Shown here: piece after piece, positions 1,908 to 62,744 of the stretch
Numbering within the stretch: the first letter of the stretch is position 1
How the letters are laid out: every line of letters begins with the position of its first letter
Virus record (IMG/VR): IMGVR_UViG_2895427314_000002
Location: 1-64,000 of that record
Reading direction: 5' to 3' (one strand)
Length of the DNA stretch: 64,000 nt
Origin: a virus
Taxonomy: Duplodnaviria; Caudoviricetes
The notes under the pieces: generated by a model
Seen by the model: the letters and a program-made list of their open reading frames with translations, nothing else
The model's database searches: none
What the model was told of the DNA's origin: nothing
Translations under genes and position numbers: made by a program

Positions 1908-2350
1908 CGGACCTGCTCACCGACGCGCCGGAGCTGACCCCGGCCGACCTGATCCGCGACGCCATCGAGCTGATGCGCACCACGTGGCGGGTGCGCGGCG
2001 ACTTCGTCATCGGCCGCCTCACCACCAGCTACGGTTTCTGCCCGATGGGCGCGATCAGCGCGATCGCCGGGGACGTGTTCGTGAGCGGCAGGCCCACCGT
2101 CCGCGTGCCGCTCGTCCGGCACACGGCTGCCTGGCTGGTTTCCTTCCACCGGTTGCCTCGCTGCCGGGAGGAACGGGAGAAGAACCGCAGTATCCCGCGC
2201 CTGGCGTACATGCGAGTGGCCGAATGGACCGACACGTTCACCGAAGCCCAAGACGACGACTTGTACGCCGCCCTGGAGGCCGCCGCCACGGCGTGGCAGC
2301 CCTCCACAACCAAGGTTGGCGCTACCGCCAACAGAAAGAGGAAATCATGA
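1904..2350 (+). CDS. DUF6197-like phage protein
   Basis: LIRDAIELM...FCPMGAI...EWTD pattern, shared with 17203 and 28224. Confidence 0.55.
   Translation: MTDLLTDAPELTPADLIRDAIELMRTTWRVRGDFVIGRLTTSYGFCPMGAISAIAGDVFVSGRPTVRVPLVRHTAAWLVSFHRLPRCREEREKNRSIPRLAYMRVAEWTDTFTEAQDDDLYAALEAAATAWQPSTTKVGATANRKRKS
2315..2332. promoter_or_regulatory. 18-bp palindrome GTTGGCG-CTAC-CGCCAAC
   Basis: Perfect copy just before RBS of 2347. Confidence 0.8.
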
Positions 2351-2856
2351 CCAACACCCAGCACCCCACTCCGGCCCGCCCCACGGTGGAAGCCGTCCGG
2401 GCATGGCGGGCCTTCGACCTCATCACCGCCGCCGACGAAACCCGGCAACCAGAACTCGCATGGGATCAGCACTCGTACCGCACCGAGTGCGGCACCGGCT
2501 GCTGCTACGCGGGCCACCTCGCCATCGACAACGGCGGCGTGTGGCTGATCACCATCACCCCGGACGCCATGCTCATCGACGGCACGCCCATCGACCCCAC
2601 CGCGCTGGACACGGACCACGACCCGTGGCAGTACCTGATCGCCGAGCCCGCCGACCCGGAGCACGCCATCGAGGAGACGCACGGCAAGCGCGTCATCCAC
2701 GTGTCCGCGAGGGCAGATCGCCTCCTGGGCCTGTCCTCCGCCGAGCACATCCTCTACGACGGCTCGAACACCAGGCCGAAGCTGGAGGAACTCATCACAC
2801 GCCGCTTCGGTCCCCGCCCCATGCTTGTTGGCGCTCACGCCAACGAAGGGAGCTGA
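2347..2856 (+). CDS. Phage protein with WDQ...CGTxxCxAG motif
   Basis: WDQHSYRTECGTGCCYAGH; RBS AAGAGGA. Confidence 0.75.
   Translation: MTNTQHPTPARPTVEAVRAWRAFDLITAADETRQPELAWDQHSYRTECGTGCCYAGHLAIDNGGVWLITITPDAMLIDGTPIDPTALDTDHDPWQYLIAEPADPEHAIEETHGKRVIHVSARADRLLGLSSAEHILYDGSNTRPKLEELITRRFGPRPMLVGAHANEGS
2827..2844. promoter_or_regulatory. 18-bp palindrome GTTGGCG-CTCA-CGCCAAC
   Basis: Perfect copy before RBS of next gene. Confidence 0.8.
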
Positions 2857-2861
2857 TCGTG

Positions 2862-3383
2862 ATGCTGGAAACTGCCCGCCTGCGCAACCGGCCTCTCCTG
2901 GCCGCCATCATCGCGCGGATCCAGAACGACACCGCCGCCCTGGAGCGCCCGTCCGAGGCCCCCTCCGACGAGTCCTTCACCGCCTGGCAGCAGTGCTTCT
3001 GGCGCGAGTTCCTCACCCACGAAGGGCGCTGCGGCACGGCCCTGTGCGTGGCGGGCTACGCCATCGAGCTGACCGGCGGCAAGTGGCTGACCACTCGCAC
3101 CCAGGAGGGCCTGTTCCTCGCCGGTGAACTCCTTCCCAACCACACGACGTACTGGTGGCTCGAATACGTCCTGGCCGACGAGACCGACCCCGAGAGCGAG
3201 GTCACCGTCATCGAGGGGCATCGCGCGGTTCAGGCGAAGGACCGTGCGATGCGGCTGCTCGGCCTCGAACCCACCCGGCACGACGAGGACCAGGACGAGG
3301 ACGACTCCGACCTGCACCCGCTGTTCCGAGGTGGCAACACCCTCGACGACCTGCGGGCGTGGCTGGGCCGCCTCCCTGACTGA
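2862..3383 (+). CDS. Paralog of 2347 (WxQ...CGTALCVAG)
   Basis: WQQCFW...CGTALCVAGYA; C-terminus similar to the upstream gene. Confidence 0.75.
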   Translation: MLETARLRNRPLLAAIIARIQNDTAALERPSEAPSDESFTAWQQCFWREFLTHEGRCGTALCVAGYAIELTGGKWLTTRTQEGLFLAGELLPNHTTYWWLEYVLADETDPESEVTVIEGHRAVQAKDRAMRLLGLEPTRHDEDQDEDDSDLHPLFRGGNTLDDLRAWLGRLPD

Positions 3384-3393
3384 CCTCCATCCC

Positions 3394-3420
3394 GGCTGGC
3401 CCGCACGGCGCGGGCCAGCC
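3394..3420 (+). terminator. GC-rich hairpin
   Basis: GGCTGGCCCGC/GCGGGCCAGCC after stop 3383. Confidence 0.5.
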
Positions 3421-3452
3421 ACCCCACCACCACCACGAGCAGGAGGACCGCC

Positions 3453-4706: not shown

Positions 4707-4707
4707 C

Positions 4708-4736: not shown

Positions 4737-4739
4737 ACA

Positions 4740-7421: not shown

Positions 7422-7595
7422 ATGACATGCCACCACCTGTTCCATCACCCACAGACCTCCACCGAGCGGGACGCGATCGTCCAGCAGTTGAACTACTGCC
7501 GCAGCATCGGCGACGGCCAGGGCGTGCTGGTCGCGCTCGTCCAGCTCACCGAGCCCTGCTCCTCGCCGGAGTCGGACGATGAGGGGGCCGAATGA
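7422..7595 (+). CDS. 57-aa hypothetical protein (not in ORF track)
   Basis: RBS GGAGG, ATG 7422 MTCHHLFHHP..., ATGA overlap with methyltransferase start. Confidence 0.6.
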   Translation: MTCHHLFHHPQTSTERDAIVQQLNYCRSIGDGQGVLVALVQLTEPCSSPESDDEGAE

Positions 7596-9580
7596 GCCGC
7601 CGCGTCAAGCAGAAGCCGCGCCGCACCGCATCCCATCGCCCGGCCGTGCACAAGCGCCGATTCCGCCACGACGAGTTAATCGCGTGCGACCTCTTCTCCG
7701 GGTTCGGAGGGCTCACGAAGGGAGCCGAACTCGCGGGGTTCACCACGATCGTCGCGGCGAACCACAATGAGTACAAGGTCTACGTCCACGAGGCCAACAA
7801 CCCGACTGCCGAGCACTGGATCGCGGATCTGGTGGACCCGGAGTCCTCCGACTACCACTCCGTCCGCGACCTTCCCCCCGCTGATCTTCTGCTTGCGGGC
7901 GTGTCCTGTGTGAACCACTCGCAGGCCAACACCAAGAAGGCGTACGAGCAGGGCCTTGCGCTGTTCGAGCTCGACGACCCCGAGTTCGAGGAACGGGTAA
8001 CACGGTCGGAGCGCGACCGGGCCACGGCCAACTGCGCGCTCCACTACGCCGCCGAGCATCACCCTCGGATGATCCTCATCGAGTGCACCACCGAGCTCTT
8101 CTCATGGGGGCCGGCGGTGCCGGGCAAGAAGTACGGCGACGGCACCACCTACAAGTGGTGGCTCAAGCAGTTTGGGCTGCTGGGCTACAAGGGCAGGGTG
8201 CTCTACCTGAACTCGATGTTCTTCGACGTCCCGCAGTCCCGCGACCGGGGCTACTGGATCTTCTGCGACAAGCGCCTGCCCACCCCGGACCTGGACCACC
8301 GGCCCGAGTCGTGGTGCAGCTTCGAGGGCAAGATCGTACAAGCTGTATGGACGTGGAAGACCGGCATCCCGCCCACCGGCAGCGTCCGCTACGGCAAGCA
8401 GTACGAGTACCGGTGCCCCTCTTGTCGGCGGATCGTGATCCCGCCGTACGCCCCGTCGATCAACGCGCTCGACCTCTCCAACCTGGGCACGAAGATTGGT
8501 GACCGGCCGCTCAAGGAGTTCACGGACAAGAAGACCGGCAAGACCATCATGAGCCGGCTCGCACCCTCCACCATGGCTCGCGCCGAGCGGTGCAGGCAGA
8601 AGTTCGCCGAGTTCCCCGCAGTGCTCATGCCCGCTAAGGCCGCGCACGGGTCCGAGCGCCACCCGTGGCAGCCTCTCTCGACGCAGACCAGTCAGCAGGA
8701 GACGGCTGTCCTCTCGACGGGCACGCTCATCGCCGCCGCGGGCAACACTTACGAGCGGCCGGGTTCCGACTGTCGCACGCGTGACCTGAGCGAACCGCTG
8801 CCGTCTCAGACCGGAACCAACACGCAGGCGCTGCTCACACCCCCGGTTGCCCTGACAGGGCAAGTGATGGCCGCGCACCGGCACAACGGCGACGGCCAGC
8901 ACATTACTCAGCCGATGGACACCGTCACGACCACGCACGAGAAAGCGGTCCTGCTCGCCGCCGTGGACAACTTCCAGGGCGGACCGCGCGGTCTGGATGA
9001 GGCGCTGCCTACGCAGGTCGGCTCGGAGACGCTGGCGCTGCTCTCGGCCGGTGTCGTTCCGTTCCGGCAGAACACCCTTCCGACGTCGCACGCCGAAGCG
9101 ATGCCGACCGTCACGTCCGATCAGGTGCCAGGGCTGCTCATGGCGGCTGGCCAGATCCAGTTCAACCAGGGCATCGATCGGCGGGTGGCAGGCGTGGACC
9201 AGCCGCTCAAGACCGTCATCGCAGACAACACCATGGCCCTGCTTTTCTCCGGCTGGTACAAGGAGAACGGCAAGACCGCTCCGCACCCCCTGAGCGACGC
9301 GCTCGGAACGGTCACCGCCCACGACACGACGGCGCTCCTCCACGCCCAATGGACCGAGGTCCTCGCGAACCTGAAGCTGGAGGACTGCTACCTCCGCATG
9401 ATGCTCAAGGAGGAGGTCGGGGCTGGGTGCGGCTTCGACGTCAGCCTCGGCAACCACGAAGGCACCTTCATCGTCTGGGGTTCCGCACGCGACCAGATCG
9501 ACGGTTACGGCAACGCCGTCAGCCCGGCGGTCGGCCGGTGGATCTGCGACCGACTCCGCATCGCCCTTCACGGCGCCTAA
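7592..9580 (+). CDS. DNA cytosine-5 methyltransferase with long repetitive variable region
   Basis: Motif I DLFSGFGG, IV GVSC, VI IECT, VIII PQSRDR, X YGNAV. Confidence 0.9.
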   Translation: MSRRVKQKPRRTASHRPAVHKRRFRHDELIACDLFSGFGGLTKGAELAGFTTIVAANHNEYKVYVHEANNPTAEHWIADLVDPESSDYHSVRDLPPADLLLAGVSCVNHSQANTKKAYEQGLALFELDDPEFEERVTRSERDRATANCALHYAAEHHPRMILIECTTELFSWGPAVPGKKYGDGTTYKWWLKQFGLLGYKGRVLYLNSMFFDVPQSRDRGYWIFCDKRLPTPDLDHRPESWCSFEGKIVQAVWTWKTGIPPTGSVRYGKQYEYRCPSCRRIVIPPYAPSINALDLSNLGTKIGDRPLKEFTDKKTGKTIMSRLAPSTMARAERCRQKFAEFPAVLMPAKAAHGSERHPWQPLSTQTSQQETAVLSTGTLIAAAGNTYERPGSDCRTRDLSEPLPSQTGTNTQALLTPPVALTGQVMAAHRHNGDGQHITQPMDTVTTTHEKAVLLAAVDNFQGGPRGLDEALPTQVGSETLALLSAGVVPFRQNTLPTSHAEAMPTVTSDQVPGLLMAAGQIQFNQGIDRRVAGVDQPLKTVIADNTMALLFSGWYKENGKTAPHPLSDALGTVTAHDTTALLHAQWTEVLANLKLEDCYLRMMLKEEVGAGCGFDVSLGNHEGTFIVWGSARDQIDGYGNAVSPAVGRWICDRLRIALHGA

Positions 9581-9582: not shown

Positions 9583-9600
9583 GTTGGCGGTTACGCCAAC
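9583..9600. promoter_or_regulatory. 18-bp palindrome GTTGGCG-GTTA-CGCCAAC
   Basis: Perfect copy between stop 9580 and start 9627. Confidence 0.85.
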
Positions 9601-14778: not shown

Positions 14779-14796
14779 GTTGGCGGTATCGCCAAC
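14779..14796. promoter_or_regulatory. 18-bp palindrome GTTGGCG-GTAT-CGCCAAC
   Basis: Perfect copy 3 nt after stop 14775. Confidence 0.85.
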
Positions 14797-15156: not shown

Positions 15157-15194
15157 GCCGACCCTAGCCGGCCTCGCAGCCGGCTAGGGTCGGC
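15157..15194. terminator. Bidirectional hairpin between convergent genes
   Basis: GCCGACCCTAGCCGGC/GCCGGCTAGGGTCGGC. Confidence 0.7.
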
Positions 15195-15687
15195 CGCCCT
15201 TGTCGAGGTGGTTGAACCACGCGTTCAGCGCATCCGTGATCACCACGTTGCCGTTCTCACGCATGCGATGGCATGCCTCGACCAGCCGAGCGCGGGTGTT
15301 CTGCTTGAGTCGGGCTGTGACCAGAGTTCCCTCGTCCCCATCCTCGTTCCACGCGTGTGTTCTGCGGGTGAAACGAGGGATGTCGAGGTCAGTCTCGTCC
15401 GGCATTTCCTTGGGAATGGGCGGATAGAACTGGTCGCAATAGAAGTTGATCGCAGCTTCCCACACGTCTTGCAGCCCCTGCCCGGTCGCTTTGCAGACGT
15501 GGGTAAGTCGCTCGTTGGTGACCGCATCCAGGCGTGTCCCGGTATTGATGAGATTCATCCAGGTGGCAGCGCGGCGGCGTTCCGGAGCAGGGTGAGGAGT
15601 GGCCGTTCGCGAGCCCGCCAACTGAGACAGCGCATCAGGTTCGAGGAACGTGAGCTGTAGGGGGTTCTGATCTTCCTCGCGGGTCAT
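15184..15687 (-). CDS. Tandem ribbon-helix-helix-like DNA-binding protein
   Basis: Two similar units: NTGTRLDAVTNERL..C..TGQGLQDVWEAAINFY and LVTARLKQNTRARL..C..MRENGNVVITDALNAW. Confidence 0.6.
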   Translation of the reverse strand: MTREEDQNPLQLTFLEPDALSQLAGSRTATPHPAPERRRAATWMNLINTGTRLDAVTNERLTHVCKATGQGLQDVWEAAINFYCDQFYPPIPKEMPDETDLDIPRFTRRTHAWNEDGDEGTLVTARLKQNTRARLVEACHRMRENGNVVITDALNAWFNHLDKGGRP

Positions 15688-15758: not shown

Positions 15759-15772
15759 CGTGTCTCGCGACA
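15759..15772. promoter_or_regulatory. Operator-like motif CGTGTCTCGCGACA
   Basis: Exact reverse complement at 24165..24178; both in divergent intergenic regions. Confidence 0.55.
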
Positions 15773-15864: not shown

Positions 15865-15882
15865 GTTGGCGATACCGCCAAC
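15865..15882. promoter_or_regulatory. 18-bp palindrome GTTGGCG-ATAC-CGCCAAC
   Basis: Perfect copy before RBS of 15899. Confidence 0.85.
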
Positions 15883-19123: not shown

Positions 19124-21910
19124 ATGCGGTTTGAGGTGCTGGGGCGTCTCACCGTCCACGCCGAGGGCCAGCAGATCGCCCTGTCTCCTCTCAAACGCCG
19201 CCTCGTCGCGGCGCTGCTGCTGGCGGGCCCAGCGGGCATCCTCGCCGAAGAATTGATGAAGGCTCTGTGGGGCGACGACTGGGGCCGCGAAGGGGGCCTA
19301 AAAACTCAGGTGTCTGAGCTGCGTCTCCTCCTGCCGGAGCGTATCCCCGCGGGCGGCCCGGCCGGCTACCGCCTCGATCTCCTGCCCAGCGATAGCTTCG
19401 ACCTGAACGAATACCGGGCTCTGCGCAGCGACGGCCAGGCGTTCGCGGAACGCGGCGACCACGCGAGGGCGGCGAACGTGCTCTCCCGGGCGCTGGCCCT
19501 GTGGGGTGAGCCGCCGTTAGCGGACGCGCCCGGCGGCGGTGGGACGCTGGTGGTGGCGCGTGACGACCTGCTGGCCGACCGCAGAGACACGGTGATGGCG
19601 CTGCTCCAGGCCCGGCTACAGGTCGGGCAGCATCGCGAGATTGTGAGCGCGGTGCGCCACGAACTGATTCACGATCCGCTGTCGGAGCAGCTGCATGCTC
19701 TGCTGATGACCGCCCTGCACCGCAGTGGCGAACGCATTCGGGCGCTCCAGCACTTCGAGGCCGTCAGCACGCTGCTCGTACGGGAAACAGGCGTCGGCCC
19801 TGGCGCTGGCCTGCGCCACCTCCGGGAGGAGATCGCCAACGACGAGGACCGCCTGGTGACCAGCAGTTCCCGCGCATCGGCCGCGCCGCTCGCCTGGCCG
19901 CCGCCCGCGCAGCTCCCCCCTGACGTCACCGACTACACCGGGCGCGAGGAGGAGGTGCAGCGGCTCGTCGGCTATTTCACCTCGGCCGAGAAAGGCACCG
20001 GCGTCCGGATCGCCTCGATCACGGGCCCCGGTGGCGTGGGGAAAAGCGCGCTGGCGGTCCATGTCGCGCATCTGGTCCGTCACGCGTACCCGGACGGCCA
20101 GTTGTACGTCCGCGTCGAGGCGTTCTCAGAACGGCCGCGTAATGTCAGCCAGGTCCTCGCTGAACTGCTCGGCTCGCTCGGAGTCCACCCGCAAGACCTT
20201 CCTCGTACTCCGGCCGAGCGCACCGCGCTGCTGCGCTCCTTGCTCGCCAACCGGCGCGTGCTGCTCGTTCTGGACGACGTGCTGGGATCCCACCAGGTCA
20301 ACCCGCTGTTACCGGGCACGGCCGGGTGCGGCGTCATCATCACCAGCCGCAGGCACCTGGCCGAAGGCGCCATGATGCGCCTGCGGCTCCACCCGCTTCG
20401 CCCCAACGACTCCCTGCACCTGCTTGGGGAGATCATCGGCCGCGACCGCATCGCCTCCGACACAGGGGCCGCCGCTGCCCTGGCGGCTGCGTGCGACGGC
20501 TTCCCGCTCGCAATCCGGGTGGCGGGGGCGCGCCTGACAGCACAGCCACACTGGAGTCTGCGGTACTTCGCCGACCGTCTGGCCGAGCTCGACTCCGACG
20601 AGCTGGGGGTGTCCGCGAGCATCGCCGCCGACAGCTACCGCGCCCTGGAAGAAGACGCTCGCCGCGCGTTCCGCGCCGTGGCGCTGGCCGGCCCAGGTGA
20701 TTTCCCGAGCTGGGTCGCCACGATGCTGATGGGGGCCGACGCCGAGAAGCCGCTGGAAACGCTGATCACGCACAGTCTCGTCGCGCCCGCCGGCACCGAC
20801 GCCCTCGGCCGCCCGCGCTACCGCCAGCACGGGCTGTTGCGCGCCTTCGCCGCTGATCGGCTGGCCGAGCGTGTCGCTGAAAACGACGCGGTGGTGGACC
20901 GGCTCCTCCTTGGCTGGCTCGAACTGGCTGACCTAGCCGACTCGCTGATCCCGCATGAGCCGAACAACCCTCCTCCGGCCCGGCTCAGCGCGTCCCTGTA
21001 CGCACCGCCTCTGGCGCGGCGTCTCATCCAGGCTGACCCGCAGGCATGGTTTGCCTCCGAGATCGGGAACCTCCTGGAGGTGGTCCGGTTCGCCTGCCAC
21101 GAGCTTCGCGTCCAAAGCGCCACCAGTGTCGCGCTGCGCATCCATTCGTACCTGTTTTGGGCCCGCCGCAGCCGGGCGGCCCAGGACATGTGGCGACTCA
21201 TCATGCAGGCCGCCACCGCCGCCGGTGACGCACGGCTGGCGGCCGAAGCCCGGCTTCGGCTCGCGATCCTCATCATCCGGTCACCTGGAGGGGGCGAGCG
21301 GGCGATACCTATGCTCGATCTCAGCTCCGAGGTGTTCCGATCGATAGTCGATCGGCGCGGCCTGGCACGATCGCTGGCTGCTCGGGCCTGGGCGGGCGAG
21401 CAGGTGCACGGGGAGGGGCGTGCAGAACATCTCGAACGGGCAACCGCCGACGCCGTCCAGGGCCTGCACATCGCCCAGACAGCACGCGACATCCACACGG
21501 AGGTGGCCTGCCTGCGCGTCCTGGGGTTCGTGCTCGCCCAGCGCGGCCTGTACGACGAGGCGCTCACCCGGTCCCAGGAGGCGGTGAGGCTGGCCCAGAC
21601 GATGCCGACCGGAACAGGGGAGCAGGCCTACCTGGCCTACACGCTGTGGATGATGGGCCGAGTCGAGCTGGCGGCGGGGAATTATGACGCGGTGCTCGAC
21701 CTCTGCAGGCGCCGCGTCGATCTCGTGAGCCCGCTCGGGCATGTGGCCGGCGACGCGACGTACCTGGAGATGGAAGGCGACGCCCTGATGAGGCTCGGCC
21801 GCCAGGGGGAGGCGGCCGAGCGGTACGCCGCAGCGGCTACGCAGTACGAGGGCGAAGGCACAGACCATCACGCCGAACGTTGCAAGCGCAAGTTCGCCGC
21901 GGTGACGTAA
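19124..21910 (+). CDS. AfsR/SARP-family regulator (wHTH-BTAD, NB-ARC, TPR)
   Basis: MRFEVLGRL; ALALWGEPPL; PAQLPPDVTDYTGR; Walker A GPGGVGKS; Walker B LLVLDD; IITSR; GFPLAI. Confidence 0.93.
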   Translation: MRFEVLGRLTVHAEGQQIALSPLKRRLVAALLLAGPAGILAEELMKALWGDDWGREGGLKTQVSELRLLLPERIPAGGPAGYRLDLLPSDSFDLNEYRALRSDGQAFAERGDHARAANVLSRALALWGEPPLADAPGGGGTLVVARDDLLADRRDTVMALLQARLQVGQHREIVSAVRHELIHDPLSEQLHALLMTALHRSGERIRALQHFEAVSTLLVRETGVGPGAGLRHLREEIANDEDRLVTSSSRASAAPLAWPPPAQLPPDVTDYTGREEEVQRLVGYFTSAEKGTGVRIASITGPGGVGKSALAVHVAHLVRHAYPDGQLYVRVEAFSERPRNVSQVLAELLGSLGVHPQDLPRTPAERTALLRSLLANRRVLLVLDDVLGSHQVNPLLPGTAGCGVIITSRRHLAEGAMMRLRLHPLRPNDSLHLLGEIIGRDRIASDTGAAAALAAACDGFPLAIRVAGARLTAQPHWSLRYFADRLAELDSDELGVSASIAADSYRALEEDARRAFRAVALAGPGDFPSWVATMLMGADAEKPLETLITHSLVAPAGTDALGRPRYRQHGLLRAFAADRLAERVAENDAVVDRLLLGWLELADLADSLIPHEPNNPPPARLSASLYAPPLARRLIQADPQAWFASEIGNLLEVVRFACHELRVQSATSVALRIHSYLFWARRSRAAQDMWRLIMQAATAAGDARLAAEARLRLAILIIRSPGGGERAIPMLDLSSEVFRSIVDRRGLARSLAARAWAGEQVHGEGRAEHLERATADAVQGLHIAQTARDIHTEVACLRVLGFVLAQRGLYDEALTRSQEAVRLAQTMPTGTGEQAYLAYTLWMMGRVELAAGNYDAVLDLCRRRVDLVSPLGHVAGDATYLEMEGDALMRLGRQGEAAERYAAAATQYEGEGTDHHAERCKRKFAAVT

Positions 21911-21911
21911 G

Positions 21912-22691
21912 TCACGGCTTGACGGCGACCCCGCAACGGAGCTTCAGCGGCTGGGATGCGTCGGCAGACAACACCTTGCCGGGCGCCCACTGCTCGGTGA
22001 ACACAAAGCCGGGCGGGTCTACCAGGTCAAGTCCGTCGAAGAACCGCAGGATCTCCTTTCCGGATCGGAGGTTCAGCGGGACTGCCAACTGCTGCCGGGA
22101 GATCCGCTCGGACACGACGGGGCTCATCTCGTCGGTGGTGACATGCGAGAGGATGAGCATCGACCCGGGCGCCAACTGCTCCATCAGGTCGTGGACGATG
22201 CCGTACGGGTCGTTCCCGTCGGGCACGAAGTGCAGGACGGCCACCAGCAGGAGCGCGACCGGCTTGGTCAAGTCGATCAGTTCCTGAGTCACGGGGTTGC
22301 TGATGATCTCGGCGGGAGTCATCACGTCCCCGTTGATGTAGCCGGTCCTGGGGTCATTGAGCAGCCCCTGGGCGTGAAGGAGCACCGTGGGATCGTTATC
22401 GACGTACACCACGGACGCGTCAGGCACCATCCGCTGCGCGACCTGGTGCACGTTGTCCTGGGTGGGCAGGCCGGAGCCGACGTCCAGGAACTGCTTGACG
22501 CCGCAGCTCGCTGCGTAGCCGGTCGCCGCTGCGAGGAACCTGCGGTTGATCACCGCCGCGTCCCGGGCCTCCGGTGCGTCTTGAAGCACGATCTGCACTT
22601 GTTGCCGGTCTATCTCGAAGTTCTCCTTGCCGCCCAGCAGAAAGTCGTACATGCGTGCGGGGGAGGGTTTCGTCTGGTCGATCGATGACAT
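21912..22691 (-). CDS. SAM-dependent methyltransferase (Methyltransf_19 / DUF574)
   Basis: PSPARMYDFLLGGKENF, QFLDVGSGLPT, VVYVDNDP. Confidence 0.92.
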   Translation of the reverse strand: MSSIDQTKPSPARMYDFLLGGKENFEIDRQQVQIVLQDAPEARDAAVINRRFLAAATGYAASCGVKQFLDVGSGLPTQDNVHQVAQRMVPDASVVYVDNDPTVLLHAQGLLNDPRTGYINGDVMTPAEIISNPVTQELIDLTKPVALLLVAVLHFVPDGNDPYGIVHDLMEQLAPGSMLILSHVTTDEMSPVVSERISRQQLAVPLNLRSGKEILRFFDGLDLVDPPGFVFTEQWAPGKVLSADASQPLKLRCGVAVKP

Positions 22692-23467: not shown

Positions 23468-23974
23468 TCAGCGCCGGTCGAGACTCGTGGTGCTGACCTG
23501 CTCGCGGTCGAGGACCTGGCGGGCGCGCTCCAGCAGATACCGCTTCATGCGCTCCTTTTCCGGGCCGCTGGCGTTCAGGGCGTCGATCTCGGCGTACGCG
23601 TCCCGCAGGAAGCCCTCCACGGCGTCGGCCGCACGGTCGGCGGCCCGCTCGGCGGCGGCGTCCTTGGCTTCCCGGTCGGTGAGGATCTGCCGCAGGAGGT
23701 CGGCGGCTTCGGTGCGGCCGGTGGCGGCCAGCTCGTCGGCGGGGACGCCGATGCCCCAGGCCCACCAGGCGAGGTCCTTGTCCGTGATGTCGGTGACGGT
23801 GCCGGATTCTCGTCGTCGCCAGAACTGCTCGTTGAACTTGTGTCCTGACGCCTCGGAGATCTTGCGGGCGAGCGGGCGGACCTGAAGTTCGGGCTCGGGG
23901 CTGCCCTCGCGTTTGCGGTAGCGGACGAGGAGCGCCAGGGCGGGGCTGAGCTGGGTTGTTCTGGTGGCAGGCAT
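23468..23974 (-). CDS. XRE-like phage repressor candidate
   Basis: VRPLARKI...NEQFWRRRESG...LAWWAWGIGVPADELAATGRTEAA; divergent from recombination operon. Confidence 0.65.
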   Translation of the reverse strand: MPATRTTQLSPALALLVRYRKREGSPEPELQVRPLARKISEASGHKFNEQFWRRRESGTVTDITDKDLAWWAWGIGVPADELAATGRTEAADLLRQILTDREAKDAAAERAADRAADAVEGFLRDAYAEIDALNASGPEKERMKRYLLERARQVLDREQVSTTSLDRR

Positions 23975-24164: not shown

Positions 24165-24178
24165 TGTCGCGAGACACG
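24165..24178. promoter_or_regulatory. Operator-like motif TGTCGCGAGACACG
   Basis: Reverse complement of 15759..15772. Confidence 0.55.
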
Positions 24179-24249: not shown

Positions 24250-24267
24250 GTTGGCGAAACCGCCAAC
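24250..24267. promoter_or_regulatory. 18-bp palindrome GTTGGCG-AAAC-CGCCAAC
   Basis: Perfect copy before RBS of 24287. Confidence 0.85.
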
Positions 24268-29825: not shown

Positions 29826-30040
29826 AAACCCCATCCGACGTCGCCGACGACGCTCGTTGGCGGAAACGCCAACGACCACGCATGCCGGACCGGCCACGCG
29901 CCGCCGTCTGGAACGGCGACCGCACCCGCCCGGTCGCCGTCGTCGAGGGCCGCCACCTGACCGCCGCCGACCTCGACGCCGCACGGCGACTGGCCACCCA
30001 GCCGAACATCCACCACCGCCACACCAGCTTCCAGGAGTAG
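29822..30040 (+). CDS. Hypothetical basic protein
   Basis: RBS AAGGA, GTGA overlap. Confidence 0.55.
   Translation: MKTPSDVADDARWRKRQRPRMPDRPRAAVWNGDRTRPVAVVEGRHLTAADLDAARRLATQPNIHHRHTSFQE
29856..29873. promoter_or_regulatory. 18-bp palindrome GTTGGCG-GAAA-CGCCAAC
   Basis: Perfect copy, intragenic. Confidence 0.8.
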
Positions 30041-30043: not shown

Positions 30044-30355
30044 ATGACCACCACCACGCCGGTCGCCGTCCTCACCGAGGAACTGGCACGCCCCGACCCA
30101 ACCCCGCGCCGTCTGCTGCGGGCGCTGCGCACCGCCGGGTTCGAGATCAAGGCGGCACAGCCCCCGGCGTGGATGCCCAGCACGCCGGAGGCGCAGCACC
30201 TGGTCGAGCGGGCCGCCCAGCTCGCCCGGCAGGGCCAAGCACGCGACGAGATCGCGGCGTGCCTGCGCAAGGACAAGCGAACGATCAACCGCTATCTGGC
30301 CGCCGCCGACGTGCTCGGCCTGCTCAGCCCCGACACGGAGGAGCCGCCGGAATGA
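30044..30355 (+). CDS. HTH DNA-binding protein
   Basis: ARDEIAACLRKDKRTINRYL. Confidence 0.7.
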   Translation: MTTTTPVAVLTEELARPDPTPRRLLRALRTAGFEIKAAQPPAWMPSTPEAQHLVERAAQLARQGQARDEIAACLRKDKRTINRYLAAADVLGLLSPDTEEPPE

Positions 30356-38204: not shown

Positions 38205-38222
38205 GTTGGCGGTACCGCTTAC
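38205..38222. promoter_or_regulatory. Degenerate 18-bp palindrome GTTGGCG-GTAC-CGCTTAC
   Basis: 2 mismatches; upstream of the replication gene. Confidence 0.6.
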
Positions 38223-39397: not shown

Positions 39398-40210
39398 ATG
39401 CTCGGCGGCATGCAGATCACACGTACGGCCAAGGCGCTCGGGAGCGCGGTAGGAACCGCCGCTCTCGCCGCGTCCATGGTCATCACAGCGGGTCACATGG
39501 GGGCGCTCACTGCCTCCCGCGTGGCCGATCCCACCATCATGGCCACGTGCCCCGACCAGGATCCCCCGGTCGTGTGCATCGTCGGCCCCCAGGGCCCGCA
39601 GGGTCCGGCAGGCGAGCCGGGACCGCAGGGCCCCCAGGGTGAGCAGGGCCCCGCAGGGCCGACCGGACCCGCAGGCCCGACCGGGCAGCAGGGCCCCACT
39701 GGACCCGCAGGAAGCGCGGGCCCGACCGGTCCGCGCGGAGAGCAGGGCCCCCAGGGACCGCAGGGGCCCGCCGGAGCTACCGGCGCGGCGGGCGCGTCCG
39801 GACGTCCCGGCACCACCGGGCCGACCGGTCCCAGCGGAGCGGCGGGCAGCCCCGGACCTACCGGACCGCGCGGCGGGCAGGGACTTCCCGGACAGCCCGG
39901 CATGCCGGGCACCGCGCCGGAGTCATCTTCCGTCACGCGGGAAGACGTGCCCCCGTTCGAGGAGGCATCGGAGACGCCCTCCACCATCCCCACGGCGGAC
40001 ATGTCCCCGGACACCTCCGACACGGCCAACGCCGCCAAGGCGGAGAACTCCGCCGAGTGGGACACCGGACGGTACCTGATCGGCGTGCTCGGGCTCATCC
40101 TGCTCACGGTCGCGATCGTGTGCATCGTGATCTACCGTCGCCGTCAGCGTGCACATGACGAGTGGTCCCGCACTTTCGTTGGCGGTTCCGCCAACGACAA
40201 CGACGAGTAA
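39398..40210 (+). CDS. Collagen-like membrane-anchored surface protein
   Basis: Signal-like N-terminus, about 37 Gly-X-Y triplets, C-terminal TM helix and Arg-rich tail. Confidence 0.88.
40178..40195. promoter_or_regulatory. 18-bp palindrome GTTGGCG-GTTC-CGCCAAC
   Basis: Perfect copy at the 3' end of the collagen gene, upstream of 40270. Confidence 0.85.
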
Positions 40211-44628: not shown

Positions 44629-45177
44629 CTACTCGACGGAGTGCACGACCTCCGCGACGGGGCCGGCGGGCCGGAGCACGGCCTCGACGGCCTCCGGCGT
44701 CACGGAGGTCCCGTACTCGTCCGTCAGGATCTGGCTGATGGCGGCCGGGGTCCGTGAGGAGTCGTCACCGTAGGCGTCCAGGATCAGCTCGCAGGTGGTG
44801 TCGTCCAGGGCGGCGGCGGCCTCGTGGTCGGGCGTGACGGTGGACTCGACCGGGTGGTCGTTGTGGCTGTGGTCGTTGTGCCCGGTCATGGTGGTGCTCC
44901 TCAGGACCTGCTCAGCGCCAGCCTTGACATCGGAGAGATCGTCGAGCGCGTGTCCGGCCTGCTCGATGGCGGCGGACAGCAGCACCGAGGTCACCGCCCC
45001 GGGCGTCACCTCCTCGTCGTCGGTGTCCAGCGTCTCGGCGATCTGGTCCGGGGTGAGAGTCGGGTCGGCCGCGGCCGTCTCGACGATGAGCTTGCGGGTC
45101 TCGTCGGACAGCGCGGCGGCGGCCTCGGGGTCGGAGTGGCCGATCGGGTCCGGCGTGTGATCGTTACGTGCGGACAT
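44629..45177 (-). CDS. Acidic protein with duplicated HTH-like unit
   Basis: EAAAAL.D.T..LI...TP..I...L...VTP.AV..VL occurs twice. Confidence 0.7.
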   Translation of the reverse strand: MSARNDHTPDPIGHSDPEAAAALSDETRKLIVETAAADPTLTPDQIAETLDTDDEEVTPGAVTSVLLSAAIEQAGHALDDLSDVKAGAEQVLRSTTMTGHNDHSHNDHPVESTVTPDHEAAAALDDTTCELILDAYGDDSSRTPAAISQILTDEYGTSVTPEAVEAVLRPAGPVAEVVHSVE

Positions 45178-45231
45178 GAGTTCTGCCTTTCGCGAGGAGA
45201 GCTTTCGTGTCTCCGCCATCATGAGGGGCTT

Positions 45232-45284
45232 GTTGGCGGTTTCGCACACGTTTCGCCAAACAGCGCGTTGGCGGGACCGCCAAC
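45232..45284. promoter_or_regulatory. Tandem palindromes: degenerate 45232-45249 and perfect GTTGGCG-GGAC-CGCCAAC 45267-45284
   Basis: In divergent intergenic region, near a minus-strand CATGAT -10-like hexamer. Confidence 0.8.
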
Positions 45285-45502
45285 GGTTGTGCTCGCACGA
45301 CCTTCTGTGTCACACTTCGTGCGGGCGGCACCCCTATGCCTATCGGCAGAGCCCCCGACCTGCCCGTATACGAGTCGTGATGCTGAGCGCGTCTCTGGCA
45401 GGGCGTGTGCCGCCCCCACCTCCTCCTATGCGGCCGGTCGCGTTCGCGCGTCTACGGCCGCCTCAGCGCGTCGATCATTCCGGGCGAAACCAGCGAAAGT
45501 GG

Positions 45503-45745
45503 GTGAACGTGACCCCCGTGACCGCCCGCCAGGCCGCCGAACGACTCGAACGGGAGCCGTGCACGATCCGCCAGTGGGCGCACCGCTACAAGGTGCGCGC
45601 CCTCGGCCGCGCCGGACGCGAGACCGTGTACGACTACGGGGACCTGGCCACGATCGAATGGTGCATCTGGGACGGCCAGGAGGTCCCGGCCACGCCGGAG
45701 GACCGCGACGAGCTTCGTGCCGCTCGCCGAGAAACCGCCACGTGA
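45503..45745 (+). CDS. Small MerR/excisionase-like HTH protein
   Basis: VTARQAAERL...TIRQWAHRY...VYDYGDL. Confidence 0.7.
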   Translation: MNVTPVTARQAAERLEREPCTIRQWAHRYKVRALGRAGRETVYDYGDLATIEWCIWDGQEVPATPEDRDELRAARRETAT

Positions 45746-46290: not shown

Positions 46291-46515
46291 ATGGAGATCC
46301 GACCGCGCGTCCGCATCGTCGGCGCCGAACGCCACCAGCTCGCTCAGCACCTGGCCAGCCGCTACCAGGCGGGGGAATCCGTCCGCGCGCTCTCCCTCGC
46401 GATCGGCCGATCGTACGGGTTCGTCCACACGCTGCTGGAGGAGGCGAGCGTCGAGCTGCGCCACCGCGGCGGCAACCAGCGCAGCCGGCCCGCGGCGGCC
46501 GGGGCAGCGAAGTGA
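46291..46515 (+). CDS. HTH_58 protein, homolog of Streptomyces SCO1839/Gbn nucleoid-associated protein
   Basis: GAERHQLA..L..RYQAGESVRAL...GRSYGFVH.LL.E..V.LR.RGG. Confidence 0.8.
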   Translation: MEIRPRVRIVGAERHQLAQHLASRYQAGESVRALSLAIGRSYGFVHTLLEEASVELRHRGGNQRSRPAAAGAAK

Positions 46516-52102: not shown

Positions 52103-53086
52103 CTATTCGTCCACGGTCAGCTTGTCAATGGCGGCCTGGCGGTCGGCGTCGGTGGGCAGGGTGTAGCGGCGGGCAGTCTCGAGCGAGTGGCCCAGCAGCT
52201 CTGCGATAGTGACGACATCCTCACCTTCGCGAGCAAGCTTCGTGCCGAGGGTGTGCCGCAGGACGTGGCTGGTGAAGTCTTCGTCGCGGCCGACCTCGAT
52301 CCCGGCCCGGTCAGCGATGCCGTTCAGTACGTCGGTGGCGGAGCGGGCGGAGAGCCGTCCACCACGGGTGTTGAGAAACAGCGCCTTAGTCTTGTCGGCG
52401 CCGCGCAGGCTGGCTCGCTCGGTCAGGTACGTCTCCAACTCGGTACGGAGCTTGACGTGCATGTTGACCTCGCGGTACTTGCCGTTCTTGCCCATGCGAA
52501 TGATGAGCACGCCCTTACGGGCGCTGATGTGCAAGTCGTCGATGTCGAGCGCGACGAGCTCGTGAATGCGGGGGCCGGCGTAGAAGGCGGTGTAACCCAT
52601 GGCGCGGTCGCGGGGTGCGCACAGCGCCGTCTCGCGCAGGAATCGCAACTGGGCTCGCTGATCGAGCGAACGCGGAGCGAGGTTGGGAAGCGCGGTGCGT
52701 TTGGCGGCTGCGGGGCCGAGGCCGAGACGGCGGTTGAAGTCGTCTATGGCGGTCAGGTGCGCGTTGACGGTGGTGGGCTTGCGCTTGAGCACGGTCAGGA
52801 GATGGGCGCGGTAGTCCCGGGCGGCCCAGTCGCGGGTGGCGGGGTCGATGAGCGGGTCGCCGTCGAGGTCGGTCGCGTCGAGCCAGGCGAGGTACTGGCG
52901 GACGCGAGAAAGGTAGTTCCGGCGGGTGTCGTCGTCGAGCCGGAGAAGTGGGTCATTGACGGCGGTTTCATAGGCGGCGTAGACGTCGGTGTAGCGGTCG
53001 GGTACGGGTGTGGCGGTGGCTCCTGGACGTCGGCGGCTGGGGCGCTCATACGTTGTGGGATCTTGGTCTCTGATATCGGAAGTCAT
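52103..53086 (-). CDS. Tyrosine recombinase (Xer/TnpI-like with N-terminal SAM-like domain)
   Basis: AGPRIHEL (R), MGKNGK (K), HVLRHT (H-x-x-R), LGH, RRYT (Y). Confidence 0.93.
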   Translation of the reverse strand: MTSDIRDQDPTTYERPSRRRPGATATPVPDRYTDVYAAYETAVNDPLLRLDDDTRRNYLSRVRQYLAWLDATDLDGDPLIDPATRDWAARDYRAHLLTVLKRKPTTVNAHLTAIDDFNRRLGLGPAAAKRTALPNLAPRSLDQRAQLRFLRETALCAPRDRAMGYTAFYAGPRIHELVALDIDDLHISARKGVLIIRMGKNGKYREVNMHVKLRTELETYLTERASLRGADKTKALFLNTRGGRLSARSATDVLNGIADRAGIEVGRDEDFTSHVLRHTLGTKLAREGEDVVTIAELLGHSLETARRYTLPTDADRQAAIDKLTVDE

Positions 53087-53180: not shown

Positions 53181-53210
53181 GTTGGCGGTTCCGCCAACGA
53201 AAGCTACGAT
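53181..53210 (+). promoter_or_regulatory. Palindrome GTTGGCG-GTTC-CGCCAAC overlapping a sigma70-type promoter
   Basis: TTGGCG (53182) -17 bp- TACGAT (53205). Confidence 0.75.
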
Positions 53211-57031: not shown

Positions 57032-57049
57032 GCTGGCGGTTCCGCAAAC
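57032..57049. promoter_or_regulatory. Degenerate palindrome GCTGGCG-GTTC-CGCAAAC
   Basis: 2 mismatches, intergenic. Confidence 0.5.
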
Positions 57050-57513: not shown

Positions 57514-58149
57514 TTGATCGATCTGGAGGCACTGGTGCGTCGTATCGAGTACATGCCCCTCCCCGAGATCGTGCGGGCCGTCCGGAATCCCAAGGAGCAC
57601 GATCTCGGCTCCATCAGGAAGTCGATCGAGAAGTTTGGCTGCACGGTCGCGGGCGAGCTGGACGAGCGGACCGGCCGCCTCGTCGCCGGGCACGGGCGGC
57701 TGCTCGTGCTGGAGGCGATGGCCGGCGAGGGCAAGTCGCCGCCCGAGGGCGTCAAGGTCGGCGACGACGGCGTGTGGCTGGCGCCCATCGTGCGCGGCTG
57801 GTCCTCCCGTTCCGACGCGGATGCGGAAGCGTACCTCGTGGCCAACAACTCGACGTCCGAGCGCGGCGGGTGGGACCGCGGCGCTCTGGCCGACATGCTG
57901 GCCGACATCTTCCAGGCCGACGAGGAGCTGCTGGCCGCGACCGGCTACAACCCCACCGACATCGAGGACCTGGTGCCCGCCGACCTCGGGGACGCGCCGC
58001 CCGCGCCGGTGCCAACGCCGGGGCCGGCCGAGCGCGTCGAGCCGCCGGACGTGTGGGGCGTCATCATCACCTGCAACAGCGAGGAGGAGCAGGTCGAACT
58101 TCTGGAGCGGCTGGCCGCCGAAGGCCGCTCTGTCCGAGCCCTCATGTAG
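57514..58149 (+). CDS. ParB/Sulfiredoxin N-terminal domain protein (packaging-associated type)
   Basis: NPKEH...SIEKFG...LVAGHGRL...LVANN; start may be GTG 57535. Confidence 0.8.
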   Translation: MIDLEALVRRIEYMPLPEIVRAVRNPKEHDLGSIRKSIEKFGCTVAGELDERTGRLVAGHGRLLVLEAMAGEGKSPPEGVKVGDDGVWLAPIVRGWSSRSDADAEAYLVANNSTSERGGWDRGALADMLADIFQADEELLAATGYNPTDIEDLVPADLGDAPPAPVPTPGPAERVEPPDVWGVIITCNSEEEQVELLERLAAEGRSVRALM

Positions 58150-60890: not shown

Positions 60891-61034
60891 GCCGTCATTG
60901 TTCCAGCATCACAGCCGAAACGGGTCGGACATCGGTCGCCGCGTCCGTGTTCGTCATGCCGCCATGCTCGCATCCGCCGCCCCAGCGCGCTTCAGATTCC
61001 TCGTCCTCTGCCAACAACCTCGCAGAACGGAGAG

Positions 61035-62135
61035 ATGACCATGGCCGTCGAGCAGCCGACCGGCATGCGGCGAACGCTGGGGCTGGTGGTTGCCGCTGCC
61101 GCGCTCCTCGCCAGCGCGGTCGCGCAGCCGCCCGCAGCCGCAGCTTCCACGGACGGGGTAGCCGTCCACAAGGACATCGCCTACGCACCCGCGCAACCTG
61201 AGGGCAGCCGCGGTCACCTGCTCGACCTGTACGTGCCGACCCAGGCACACCGTGCGCTGAGACCGGTTCTGATCGTGACGGGCGGCAGCGCCTGGCGTAG
61301 GGACGATGGCAAAGAGTGGGCGGCCCAGATCGCGCCGCGGTTCACCGCAGCGGGCTACGTGGTCGCTGGCGTCAGCGTCCGCTCCAGTGAGCAGGCGGTC
61401 TTCCCGGCCCAGGTGCATGATGCCAAGGCAGCGGTCAGGTGGCTCCGGGCGAACGCGGCCACATACCGGCTCGACCCGAACCGGTTCGCGATGATGGGGG
61501 ACTCCTCCGGCGCTTGGGCGAGCGCCATGGTGGCGGTCACGGGCGACGTACCTGCGCTGGAAGGAGCGGTGGGTGTCACCGGCGTGTCCAGCGCGGTGCA
61601 GGCAGCGGTGGATGTGTACTCGCCGACCGACTTCCTGACGATGAACGCGCAGATGCTTCCGGGGGCCTGCCAGACGTTCAACGCGCAGATGGGAGTGACG
61701 GACTGCCATGATGACCCGGGCTCTCCCGAGTCGCAGCTCATCGGCTGCGCCATTCAGACCTGTCCGGCTCGCGCTCGCGCGGCCAACCCGATCACGTACG
61801 TCTCTCGCGGCGACCCGCCGATCCTCATCGTGCACGGCCAGGCGGACACGCTCGTTCCTCACGGCCAGAGCTGGCTGCTGTACCGCGCGCTGGAGCGCGC
61901 CTGCGTGACCGCCACGTTCTACTCTGTGCCGGGCGTTGGCCACTCCACTGCCATCCTGCGGCCGGATGTCACCAAGCCCGCTGCGCATGCGACGTCGCGC
62001 TGCCGACCCCAGCCAGTGAAGCGGCTGGAGCGTCGGCCGACGCTCGACACCATCGGCGCGTTCATCGAACGCGCCTGGCACCGCACCCGATGCAGGCCGC
62101 CGTCGCCCAGCGCGGCAGCAGGAACGGAGAACTGA
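61035..62135 (+). CDS. Secreted alpha/beta hydrolase (BD-FAE/HSL-like esterase)
   Basis: Signal peptide; LLDLYVP; TGGSAW; GDSSG nucleophile; HGQADTLVP; GH. Confidence 0.88.
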   Translation: MTMAVEQPTGMRRTLGLVVAAAALLASAVAQPPAAAASTDGVAVHKDIAYAPAQPEGSRGHLLDLYVPTQAHRALRPVLIVTGGSAWRRDDGKEWAAQIAPRFTAAGYVVAGVSVRSSEQAVFPAQVHDAKAAVRWLRANAATYRLDPNRFAMMGDSSGAWASAMVAVTGDVPALEGAVGVTGVSSAVQAAVDVYSPTDFLTMNAQMLPGACQTFNAQMGVTDCHDDPGSPESQLIGCAIQTCPARARAANPITYVSRGDPPILIVHGQADTLVPHGQSWLLYRALERACVTATFYSVPGVGHSTAILRPDVTKPAAHATSRCRPQPVKRLERRPTLDTIGAFIERAWHRTRCRPPSPSAAAGTEN

Positions 62136-62137
62136 CC

Positions 62138-62467
62138 ATGGCTGTGCACATCCACCGATACGAGCCCCTCGACACCGTCGTGGAGGCGGTCGAGGTGAAC
62201 GGGCTCGACCTGGACGACATCGTCGTCTGGATCAACGACACCTCCAAGCTGAAGGGCATCGTCGGGCAGACCGCGTTGCGCGGCCGGTCGGCGGAGTACA
62301 TCGACCTGCAGACGCCCGAGGGGATGCTGCGCGCGGTCCTGGGCGACTTCGTGGTGACGGACGGTGCGGGCTCGTTCTGGAAGGTGTCGCGGTCGGTGTT
62401 CCAGCGCAGCTACGCCCCCGTCGCGCCCGCCGGCGAGGAGAGCGGCGAGGACGAGGGCGGGGAGTAG
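62138..62467 (+). CDS. Conserved phage protein
   Basis: VEAV...QTPEG...GDFVV...F..SY. Confidence 0.75.
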   Translation: MAVHIHRYEPLDTVVEAVEVNGLDLDDIVVWINDTSKLKGIVGQTALRGRSAEYIDLQTPEGMLRAVLGDFVVTDGAGSFWKVSRSVFQRSYAPVAPAGEESGEDEGGE

Positions 62468-62724
62468 TGCGGATCCACGTGCTGCGGCTGCCGCTCTACG
62501 AGCTGGGCGGCGTGTCGGAGGAGCCGTTCGCGCTCATCGTGAACCAGGCCCCGCCCGAGGGGGACGGCTGGTCGATGCCCGCGCTGGCGGTGTTCGCCGA
62601 GCAGATCGACGCCCGCGGCGTGTGGGTGACCGCGCACACGGTGGAGATCGTGGACCAGTTCCCACCCGAGATCGTGGATCACGTGCCGATGGGCGGCCCG
62701 GCCGAGACCGTGGACGGCCCCTGA
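62467..62724 (+). CDS. Hypothetical protein
   Basis: TAGTG coupling. Confidence 0.65.
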   Translation: MRIHVLRLPLYELGGVSEEPFALIVNQAPPEGDGWSMPALAVFAEQIDARGVWVTAHTVEIVDQFPPEIVDHVPMGGPAETVDGP

Positions 62725-62726
62725 GC

Positions 62727-62744
62727 GTTGGCGGAACCGACAAC
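62727..62744. promoter_or_regulatory. Near-perfect palindrome GTTGGCG-GAAC-CGACAAC
   Basis: 1 mismatch; directly upstream of small terminase RBS. Confidence 0.75.

Follow-up and report, generated by a model that had tools for sequence, protein, structure and literature searches.

The window analyzed here, a stretch of 64,000 nucleotides, comprises bases 1–64000 of a 91,645-bp IMG/VR "provirus" record (IMGVR_UViG_2895427314_000002; hereafter G000). Gene calling by codon-usage log-odds gave ~137 genes, mostly on the plus strand, and Pfam domains found in the element include a C5 methylase, DUF5131, a YqaJ exonuclease, RecT, a RuvC-like protein, a SARP-like BTAD/NB-ARC/TPR regulator accompanied by a Methyltransf_19 gene, a tyrosine recombinase in the middle of the record, an ABC-ATPase/GNAT fusion and, at the record's end, a GntR/UTRA regulator. 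The large terminase is encoded just beyond the window; in Nonomuraea assemblies it has relatives with 90–94% identity, most of them located on 95–113-kb contigs, and in other assemblies relatives with 72–80%; those of cultured phages reach at most 57% identity. A megablast search with 52–64 kb of the window found no match among cultured phages (50,697 phage records). We compared the whole elements of nine relatives with G000, five of which are close (G001–G005; together with G000 they form motif class I below). Dispersed over these elements is an 18-bp palindrome, GTTGGCG-N4-CGCCAAC, which an earlier note on this DNA had taken for a distributed set of operators or transcription roadblocks that silence the whole element, naming as candidate binders a tandem ribbon-helix-helix (RHH) protein (15184–15687, minus strand) and an XRE-like protein (23468–23974, minus strand). 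The palindrome belongs to the element and not to its hosts, lies preferentially at gene boundaries, and changes between lineages in a manner that points to a phage-encoded reader.

Copies of the palindrome and their placement

We scanned for GTTGGCG-N4-CGCCAAC, counting perfect copies and copies with at most two mismatches, and used 100 dinucleotide-preserving shuffles of the window as a control. The window holds 10 perfect copies, as compared to none in the 100 shuffles, and 15 copies with ≤2 mismatches, as compared to a shuffle mean of 0.49. The analytic expectation at 69% GC is ~9e-4 perfect copies per 64 kb, in agreement with the ~0.001 estimated in the earlier note. All 14 copies listed there (10 perfect, 4 with 1–2 mismatches) were present at their coordinates, and an extra 1-mismatch copy at 15605, inside the RHH gene, had been missed. 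In the whole 91,645-bp record, an 11th perfect copy is found at 89174, and 1-mismatch copies lie beyond the window at 72405 and 76880. The spacers are mainly GTTC, GAAC, and GTAC, bearing out the A/T centre that had been noticed, and with these spacers the true consensus is an 8-2-8 palindrome. The dyad is extended by the flanks (tc...ga) as well as by the spacer ends (G..C), giving tcGTTGGCGG-WW-CCGCCAACga as the full consensus.

Three perfect copies fall in the 3' end of an open reading frame (ORF). The site at 2315..2332 is within the last 35 nt of ORF 1904–2350, with an ATG (2347) 14 nt downstream; that at 2827..2844 is in the 3' end of an ORF ending at 2856, with a GTG (2859) 14 nt downstream; and that at 40178..40195 is in the last 33 nt of an ORF ending at 40210, with an ATG (40270) 74 nt after. 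Other copies directly follow a stop codon. The perfect site at 9583..9600 trails the C5-methylase gene (7592–9580), 2 nt past its stop, and is followed 26 nt later by an ATG (9627), the perfect site at 29856..29873 lies 30 nt after the stop of the RuvC-like gene and 8 nt before an ATG (29882), and the perfect site at 14779..14796 is 3 nt past a stop (14775) and faces the 3' end of the convergent RHH gene. Three imperfect copies are placed alike: 38205..38222 (2 mismatches, right arm CGCTTAC) 5 nt after a stop (38199), 57032..57049 (2 mismatches) 39 nt after a stop (56992), and 62727..62744 (1 mismatch, CGACAAC) 2 nt after a stop (62724). The latter precedes by 26 nt a probable small-terminase gene (62771), itself the gene before the large terminase, so that the site upstream of the terminase described in the earlier note is indeed there; gene calls and domains identified no replication gene for the copy that the note placed upstream of one. 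Ahead of start codons are the perfect sites at 15865..15882, 16 nt before an ATG (15899) and upstream of the divergent RHH gene, 178 nt away, and at 24250..24267, 19 nt before the GTG (24287) of the first gene in the exonuclease/RecT operon. The 1-mismatch site at 15605..15622 is inside the RHH ORF, 65 nt past its start, and reads GTTGGCG-N4-CGCGAAC on the sense strand. The remaining copies, at 45232..45249, 45267..45284, and 53181..53198, lie in or beside promoter-like cassettes that are described below.

These placements are typical of the close relatives. G001–G005 carry GTTGGCGG-WW-CCGCCAAC sites, 18–23 each with ≤2 mismatches, and we quantified placement for the 123 sites (≤2 mismatches) of the six genomes, with statistics by mismatch class. 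Although ~86% of the DNA is coding (~14% non-coding), 87 of the 123 sites are intergenic, an excess with a binomial P of 1e-9 to 1e-24 depending on mismatch class. Several "genic" copies, such as those at 2315, 2827, and 40178, occupy the last 15–35 nt of an ORF that itself overlaps the ribosome-binding site (RBS) region of the next gene. At co-directional junctions, the median distance from the upstream stop to the site is 8 nt, and 56% of the distances are ≤10 nt, whereas convergent junctions hold only 2 of the 87 intergenic sites. The placement at gene boundaries reported from the window alone thus holds for the whole group. Since a reading of their flanks finds no -10-like element downstream and only 4–25 nt to the RBS, intra-operon copies are, as judged from sequence, not promoters.

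In the relatives, sites recur at the syntenic junctions that precede the probable small-terminase, capsid, and tape-measure genes and the early recombination operon, and likewise within and next to the RHH gene. Position-specific imperfect arms are kept as well, namely CGCTTAC (38205), CGCACAC (45232), and CGACAAC (62727). The imperfect form at 38205 is found at the syntenic position in 4 relatives, and the position of 62727 is occupied by a 1–2-mismatch site in 5 of 5 class-I relatives, with the CGACAAC arm in three of them as well as in L129 and L153.

A minority of copies is embedded in promoter-like cassettes. These cassettes were recognized by a conserved leader/RBS word, CCTCGCGAAAG, which stands 8–10 nt ahead of an ATG, occurs 2–7 times per class-I genome, and in the window is found at 45187, 51015, and 53229, before the start codons of small genes. 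In 10 of the 27 leader cassettes of the six genomes, the 18-bp site occupies a fixed place, the order being site, 6–9 nt, a -10-like hexamer (TACGAT/CATGAT/CATGCT/CATCCT), 16–21 nt, the leader, and ATG. Two window copies are of this type. The perfect site at 53181..53198, between the tyrosine recombinase gene (52103–53086, minus) and a rightward gene, is arranged as site-N6-TACGAT-N18-CCTCGCGAAAG-N8-ATG and has a syntenic twin at G002:55190. The 2-mismatch site at 45232..45249 belongs to a leftward cassette, site-N8-CATGAT-N20-CCTCGCGAAAG-N9-ATG, ahead of gene 44629–45177 (minus); 17 bp from it is the perfect site at 45267..45284, in the divergent region before a MerR/Xis-like gene (45503–45745). 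A TTGGCG-17-TACGAT promoter had been proposed at 53181, with the left arm of the site as its -35. Conservation across the 10-cassette family supports it, although a generic sigma-70 scan of 44.5–54 kb calls no promoter. Copies that cover the -35/spacer and lie upstream of the transcript would have the geometry of operators, which supports this role for them. The remaining CCTCGCGAAAG cassettes include ones with a different conserved upstream box (..gatgcccgaca..N..TACGGT).

Element specificity and motif classes

The earlier note had pointed out that a similar density of the motif in the host chromosome would mark it as a host repeat. In five Nonomuraea genomes (10–14 Mb each) that harbor close relatives, 39 of the 41 perfect copies are on the related element. 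Four more Nonomuraea genomes, which harbor distant relatives, have no perfect copy, and the N. antri genome has two, both on a second, class-I element (contig C541). In these ten genomes (~113 Mb), 2 perfect copies thus lie outside related elements, which is the level expected by chance. The motif is a property of the element, not of the host, and a host repeat of the repetitive extragenic palindromic (REP) type is ruled out by these numbers. An exact-pattern scan of IMG/VR returned, among the matches listed, only single chance copies per contig.

Distant relatives carry other palindromes at the same junctions, in which the core GCGG-NN-CCGC is unchanged and the outer bases differ. Four classes can be distinguished by their outer bases and core: GTTG-GCG in class I (G000–G005), GYCA-GCG in class II (G006), RAWW-GCG in class III (G007 and G008), and CSTA-GCG in class IV (G009). 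When occurrences with ≤1 mismatch are tabulated, the matrix is strictly diagonal across the four classes, with 14–19 copies of the class-I motif per class-I genome and none elsewhere, 5 copies of class II in G006, 11–15 copies of class III in G007 and G008, and 5 copies of class IV in G009. Additional loci follow the same pattern. N. antri (G007) hosts both a class-III element (C11) and the class-I element on C541. Because one host thus has elements of two classes, the reader of the motif must, on this comparison of sequences, be encoded by the element rather than be a host factor. In the class-I element of N. antri, the large-terminase match is in three pieces, one of them with an in-frame TGA.

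A probable DNA site, candidate readers, and rival roles

A palindrome placed behind stop codons could also be read in RNA. The copies would then be hairpins in polycistronic transcripts, serving as processing, stabilising, or factor-independent termination signals, and their reader might be a phage RNA-binding protein or nuclease, as for the RNase III sites between T7 genes. Perfect copies do form stems of 7–10 bp (−11 to −18 kcal/mol), most copies lie 2–10 nt past a stop codon and ahead of the next RBS, and the arms co-vary between lineages with the dyad preserved, although a change of both arms between classes would fit a DNA site equally well. However, it is the sequence itself, beyond pairing, that is fixed within a genome: the arms are strictly conserved among close relatives, and 48 sites have a single uncompensated mismatch, as compared to ~2 with symmetric double changes. 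Such uniformity would require a sequence-specific reader. Among the 69 broken arm pairs in imperfect sites, G-U is not clearly favored over A-C (18 and 11, respectively) and 40 are unpairable, and imperfect copies that are conserved at syntenic positions are nearly stemless, folding weakly (−4 to −7 kcal/mol). Relative to transcription, the spacers GTTC and GAAC are equally frequent (19 each, with 11 GTAC), a symmetry that would not be expected of a strand-specific RNA loop. The conserved G..C at the spacer ends, which lengthens the DNA palindrome to 8-2-8, cannot pair around a 2-nt loop, and transcription presumably starts downstream of the promoter-embedded copies. No copy is followed by the T tail of an intrinsic terminator, and an Rfam scan of the window matched no family. 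In the test that the earlier note had proposed to tell an RNA hairpin from a DNA site, compensatory arm changes as opposed to strict conservation, the constancy of the arms in close relatives, the single uncompensated mismatches, and the parity of GTTC and GAAC favor a DNA site, and we consider RNA hairpins unlikely.

To find candidate readers, we identified by all-against-all BLAST the families common to all ten elements. Both proteins proposed earlier have predicted DNA-binding folds, and they are the only universal DNA-binding proteins examined whose DNA-reading parts change by motif class. The first, of 167 aa (15184–15687, minus), is the best candidate. Its AlphaFold2 (AF2) model shows two beta-alpha-alpha units (E47–53/H55–68/H72–85 and E121–127/H129–142/H146–163) with a predicted local distance difference test (pLDDT) score of ~90. 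Foldseek matched it to F-plasmid TraY (9f0x_E) with probability 1.0 and a TM-score of ~0.65 normalised to the target, and much more weakly to AvtR (4hv0, probability 0.10). No RHH family was matched in a Pfam scan of the protein; on the model, it would be a tandem single-chain member of the ribbon-helix-helix (Arc/MetJ/CopG) superfamily. The family is present in all 10 elements, and no homologue was found in the 50,697 cultured phage records. Its first strand, beta-1, reads NTG(T/S)RLD in all class-I phages (47–76% overall identity), (T/S)TSARLD in class II, PT(S/M)VYLY in class III, and QSAFTLT in class IV, while the beta-2 strand, RLxxNTRARL, is constant across classes. A variable beta-1 and a constant beta-2 appear to mirror the site, whose outer bases vary around an unchanging core, and half-site centres 10 bp apart would allow two RHH ribbons to lie along the same face of the helix. 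The gene itself is marked by sites: every class-I genome has an imperfect GTTGGCG-N4-CGCGAAC 65–85 nt inside it and a consensus site ~200 nt upstream, and in classes II–IV a half-site of the own class is found at the internal position. The internal imperfect site would fit feedback on the reader's own gene.

The second candidate, of 168 aa (23468–23974, minus), is an XRE-like helix-turn-helix (HTH) protein. In its AF2 model (pLDDT 86), an XRE-like N-terminal domain is combined with a long helical hairpin, and Foldseek matched the N-terminal domain to XRE-family regulators, EspR, ClgR, and SinR with probabilities of 0.8–0.94 and TM-scores of 0.5–0.75 (normalised to the target), but with weak E-values of 0.4–3. 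A Pfam scan of this protein found no match. It is universal in the elements, and its putative recognition helix varies by motif class. A natural target for an XRE-type protein would be a distinct 14-bp local operator, GTGTC-TCGC-GACA, present in 2–3 copies per class-I genome. In the window, it lies at 15759..15772, over the putative -35/spacer of the RHH gene promoter (TTGTCG-17-TACGGT), and in inverted orientation at 24165..24178, the putative start of the rightward early operon. The corresponding region of class III has TGACGCGTCA repeats.

Other regulators were considered and rejected. Gene 44629–45249, a weak HTH candidate beside the double site whose true start is at ~45177, has no relatives in the genome contigs searched and is absent from 4 of 5 class-I relatives. 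For the GntR/UTRA regulator at the record's end, the tandem-wHTH GntR proteins, and a 444-aa HTH_31 protein of relatives, the recognition helices vary within class I or the protein is not universal. Recognition helices are invariant across classes in the small HTH proteins 45503–45745 and 46291–46515, and the small HTH protein 30044–30355 has an identical helix in a class-I and a class-II phage. PHROGs gave 0 matches for 10 small regulator candidates. We tentatively favor the RHH protein as the reader; the XRE-like protein is a more doubtful choice, and it is rather unlikely, though well worth bearing in mind, that some other protein reads the motif.

Our proposal is that the 18-bp palindrome is a double-stranded DNA site for a dimeric, phage-encoded regulator, dispersed ~18–23 times over a ~100-kb element that would be a temperate Nonomuraea phage or phage-plasmid-like element. 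By analogy, the copies probably form a dispersed operator/roadblock network akin to mycobacteriophage stoperators. The minority of copies covering the -35/spacer of conserved promoters would be ordinary operators. At the majority, which are intra-operon, just past a stop codon and before an RBS, the bound protein would be a roadblock to elongating RNA polymerase, and such roadblocks would keep the prophage silent, as L5-type stoperators do. The lineage-specific outer four bases around the GCGG-NN-CCGC core would set immunity specificity. If the reader is the single-chain tandem RHH protein, the likeliest candidate, beta-1 would read the outer bases and beta-2 the core, and the imperfect copy within its coding region would provide negative feedback. 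That such a protein acts as a genome-wide roadblock repressor with this modular specificity, the variable strand serving the outer bases and the constant strand the core, is possible, if on balance questionable. Binding, roadblock action, the identity of the reader, and the role in immunity are what we infer from layout, conservation, and likeness to known systems.

Several observations weigh against this proposal. The hairpins that perfect copies can form, and the position of sites directly after stop codons, would suit an RNA element too. Deviations from the consensus are commoner in the 3' arm, promoter-distal towards the RBS (51, as compared to 27), an excess that may come from repeated counting of orthologous sites. 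The cassette promoters are under the threshold of the generic sigma-70 scan and are recognized by conservation only. The distant classes have fewer sites (5–15), so that a genome-wide silencing role may not be general. Finally, the motif, RHH, and XRE classes all follow phage phylogeny and are concordant in 13 genomes or loci, among which no recombinant with a discordant class was found; for this reason, covariation cannot separate the RHH protein from the XRE-like protein or from an unrecognised reader.

Three further roles for a DNA site were weighed against operators and roadblocks. If the copies bound an early phage activator or antiterminator, the network would turn genes on (middle/late positive control) rather than off. 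Sites do precede many operons, including terminase, capsid, and tape-measure genes, and the early operon encodes several universal small HTH proteins, but the early HTH proteins examined do not vary by motif class, and the proteins that do covary with class are both on the minus strand with promoters of their own, like lysogeny genes. Moreover, intra-operon copies have no -10-like element and only 4–25 nt to the RBS, and promoter-embedded copies sit on the -35/spacer, a repressing position, which makes an activator improbable. The copies might also be parS-like centromeres or DNA-organising sites serving the partition of a plasmid-like prophage, comparable to the dispersed sopC centromeres of phage N15. 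Several relatives are separate circular contigs of 95–113 kb and two relatives are without the recombinase, suggesting a plasmid lifestyle. Against this, ~20 sites tied to stops and RBSs and with fixed promoter spacing are unexpected for centromeres, and a Pfam search for ParA/ParB found none among the proteins scanned (a subset of ORFs), including 10 ORFs of a ~21-kb segment that a relative has in addition and protein 57535–58149, present in all ten elements, whose best match was BRCT at E 0.19. We regard this role as very improbable. Lastly, the copies might have no regulatory reader and be mainly recombination linkers, in which brief stretches of identity at gene boundaries promote module exchange. 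Some of these boundary copies flank variable cassettes, such as a 4.5-kb segment between copies in G005, and indels between repeats have been described for Cluster O palindromes (PMC4351075). Nevertheless, linkers leave unexplained the dyad symmetry, the class variants with a constant core, the promoter-embedded copies, and the conserved imperfect copy in the RHH gene. We give this explanation hardly any credence; recombination at copies is more likely a side effect.

Known systems and other features of the element

The dispersed-site layout is already known, for instance from Cluster A mycobacteriophages (L5, Bxb1, TipsytheTRex), which have >20 repressor sites genome-wide, at promoters and in short intergenic gaps in operons, with site variants that track immunity groups (PMC9283540; PMC6550527). 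The Nonomuraea element resembles them in having sites in both kinds of place. It differs in that L5-type stoperators are asymmetric 13-mers (13–14 bp) that function in one orientation only and are recognized by a monomeric repressor combining an HTH with a stoperator domain, whereas here the site is an 18–22-bp palindrome in which GTTC and GAAC are equally frequent, with no orientation tied to transcription, and the candidate reader is a tandem RHH protein or an XRE dimer, thus of a different fold. No gp71-like repressor was found among the candidates by PHROGs (0 matches) or Pfam. In DNA anatomy, Cluster O mycobacteriophages come closest, with a 17-bp palindrome, TGTTCGG-N3-CCGAACA, of which there are 34 copies with invariant 7-bp arms and an A/T-rich centre. 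Many of these copies lie in short intergenic gaps, neither orientation is preferred, and the host lacks the repeat; the authors of the study point to a dimeric DNA-binding protein, with no function known (PMC4351075). Invariant 7-bp arms, an A/T centre, copies by the tens, and absence from the host are shared, but sequence and spacer length differ, and lineage variants and promoter-embedded copies are not described there, which makes the Cluster O palindrome an analogue and not the same repeat.

Large plasmid-like prophages can also be governed by one repressor acting at many sites, as is the case for P1 C1. There, host, motif, and protein are unrelated to those of the Nonomuraea element, and P1-type sites are mostly at promoters rather than intra-operon. 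In phage phiC31, the repressor sites are inverted repeats of ~17 bp. The Streptomyces phages R4/phiJoe and phiC31 have their repressor sites, 8–18 or more of them, scattered over intergenic regions (PMC10276819; PMC4557955). They are, like the present element, temperate phages of actinomycetes with dispersed intergenic sites, but have other motifs and repressor families, with no DNA similarity and no RHH homologue in the 50,697 phage records. In Streptomyces relatives of the element itself (large terminase ~55% identical), no dispersed palindrome was found in the 21 kb surrounding the terminase. As for the candidate reader, F-plasmid TraY and the archaeal virus protein AvtR share with it the pseudo-dimer of two RHH units per chain, but sequence identity is 10–17%, and TraY serves as an accessory factor of the relaxosome rather than as a repressor in phage immunity. 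New here are the motif, its four-class structure of core plus variable bases, and the phage family, and also, as modeled, the candidate tandem-RHH reader with an internal feedback site.

To our knowledge, intra-operon repressor sites that stop transcription are well documented only in Cluster A mycobacteriophages and a few Streptomyces phages. The Nonomuraea elements would offer a clean example of a palindromic network, in which one core comes in four natural specificity variants, with two candidate readers and a built-in feedback site, and in which the evolution of new immunity specificities becomes directly testable. If the tandem RHH protein is the reader, stoperator-type silencing would gain a new class of protein, in an undescribed family of ~100-kb Nonomuraea phage-plasmid-like elements, and if its reading is modular, exchange of one short strand would create a new immunity group. 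Orthogonal pairs of site and reader could become insulated repressor parts for actinomycete genetics. The prophage family itself is large, in some members apparently plasmid-like, without a cultured relative, and resident in a genus of antibiotic interest.

Several relatives are separate contigs of 95–107 kb, as seen at loci L204–L209 (G003), L210–L215 (G004), L222–L226 (G006), and L227–L231 (G007). Terminal overlaps are 95 bp in G003 and G004 and 38 bp in G006, and the RHH gene is divided over the contig ends in G004 and G007; these relatives are therefore circular molecules. The tyrosine recombinase is absent from G001 and G004, which suggests a plasmid-like or replicating form. In contrast, the element copy of the present record seems integrated, since an identical RHH protein is encoded on a 614-kb contig. 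The record is without a ~21-kb segment that in relatives (G001 29–50 kb, G004 67–88 kb) separates the GntR gene from the genes with which the window starts and encodes extra GntR paralogues, the 444-aa HTH_31 protein, and a protein with an AbiEi-like domain.

Within the window, the surroundings of the double site at 45232/45267 are conserved to different degrees. The ~200 nt of non-coding DNA before gene 45503–45745 (45285–45502) are conserved in all class-I relatives, and this gene (MerR/Xis-like HTH) as well as 46291–46515 (HTH_58) are near-invariant in all four classes. On the other side, at gene 44629–45177 and at its syntenic places in G001–G005, each element encodes at least one small, very acidic protein behind a putative site-controlled promoter. 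The sequences of these acidic proteins are poorly conserved, and they may act as DNA mimics, as anti-repressors, or against restriction. The SARP-like BTAD/NB-ARC/TPR regulator and the convergent Methyltransf_19 gene (19124–22691) are common only to G005 (80–82% identity), and this segment looks like a mobile cassette inside the prophage. Finally, a PAPS-reductase-like protein (32964–34724) has a LAGLIDADG_3 domain at residues 358–412 and aligns with its relatives over ~1/3 of its length, which would be compatible with a possible intein or homing-endonuclease insertion.

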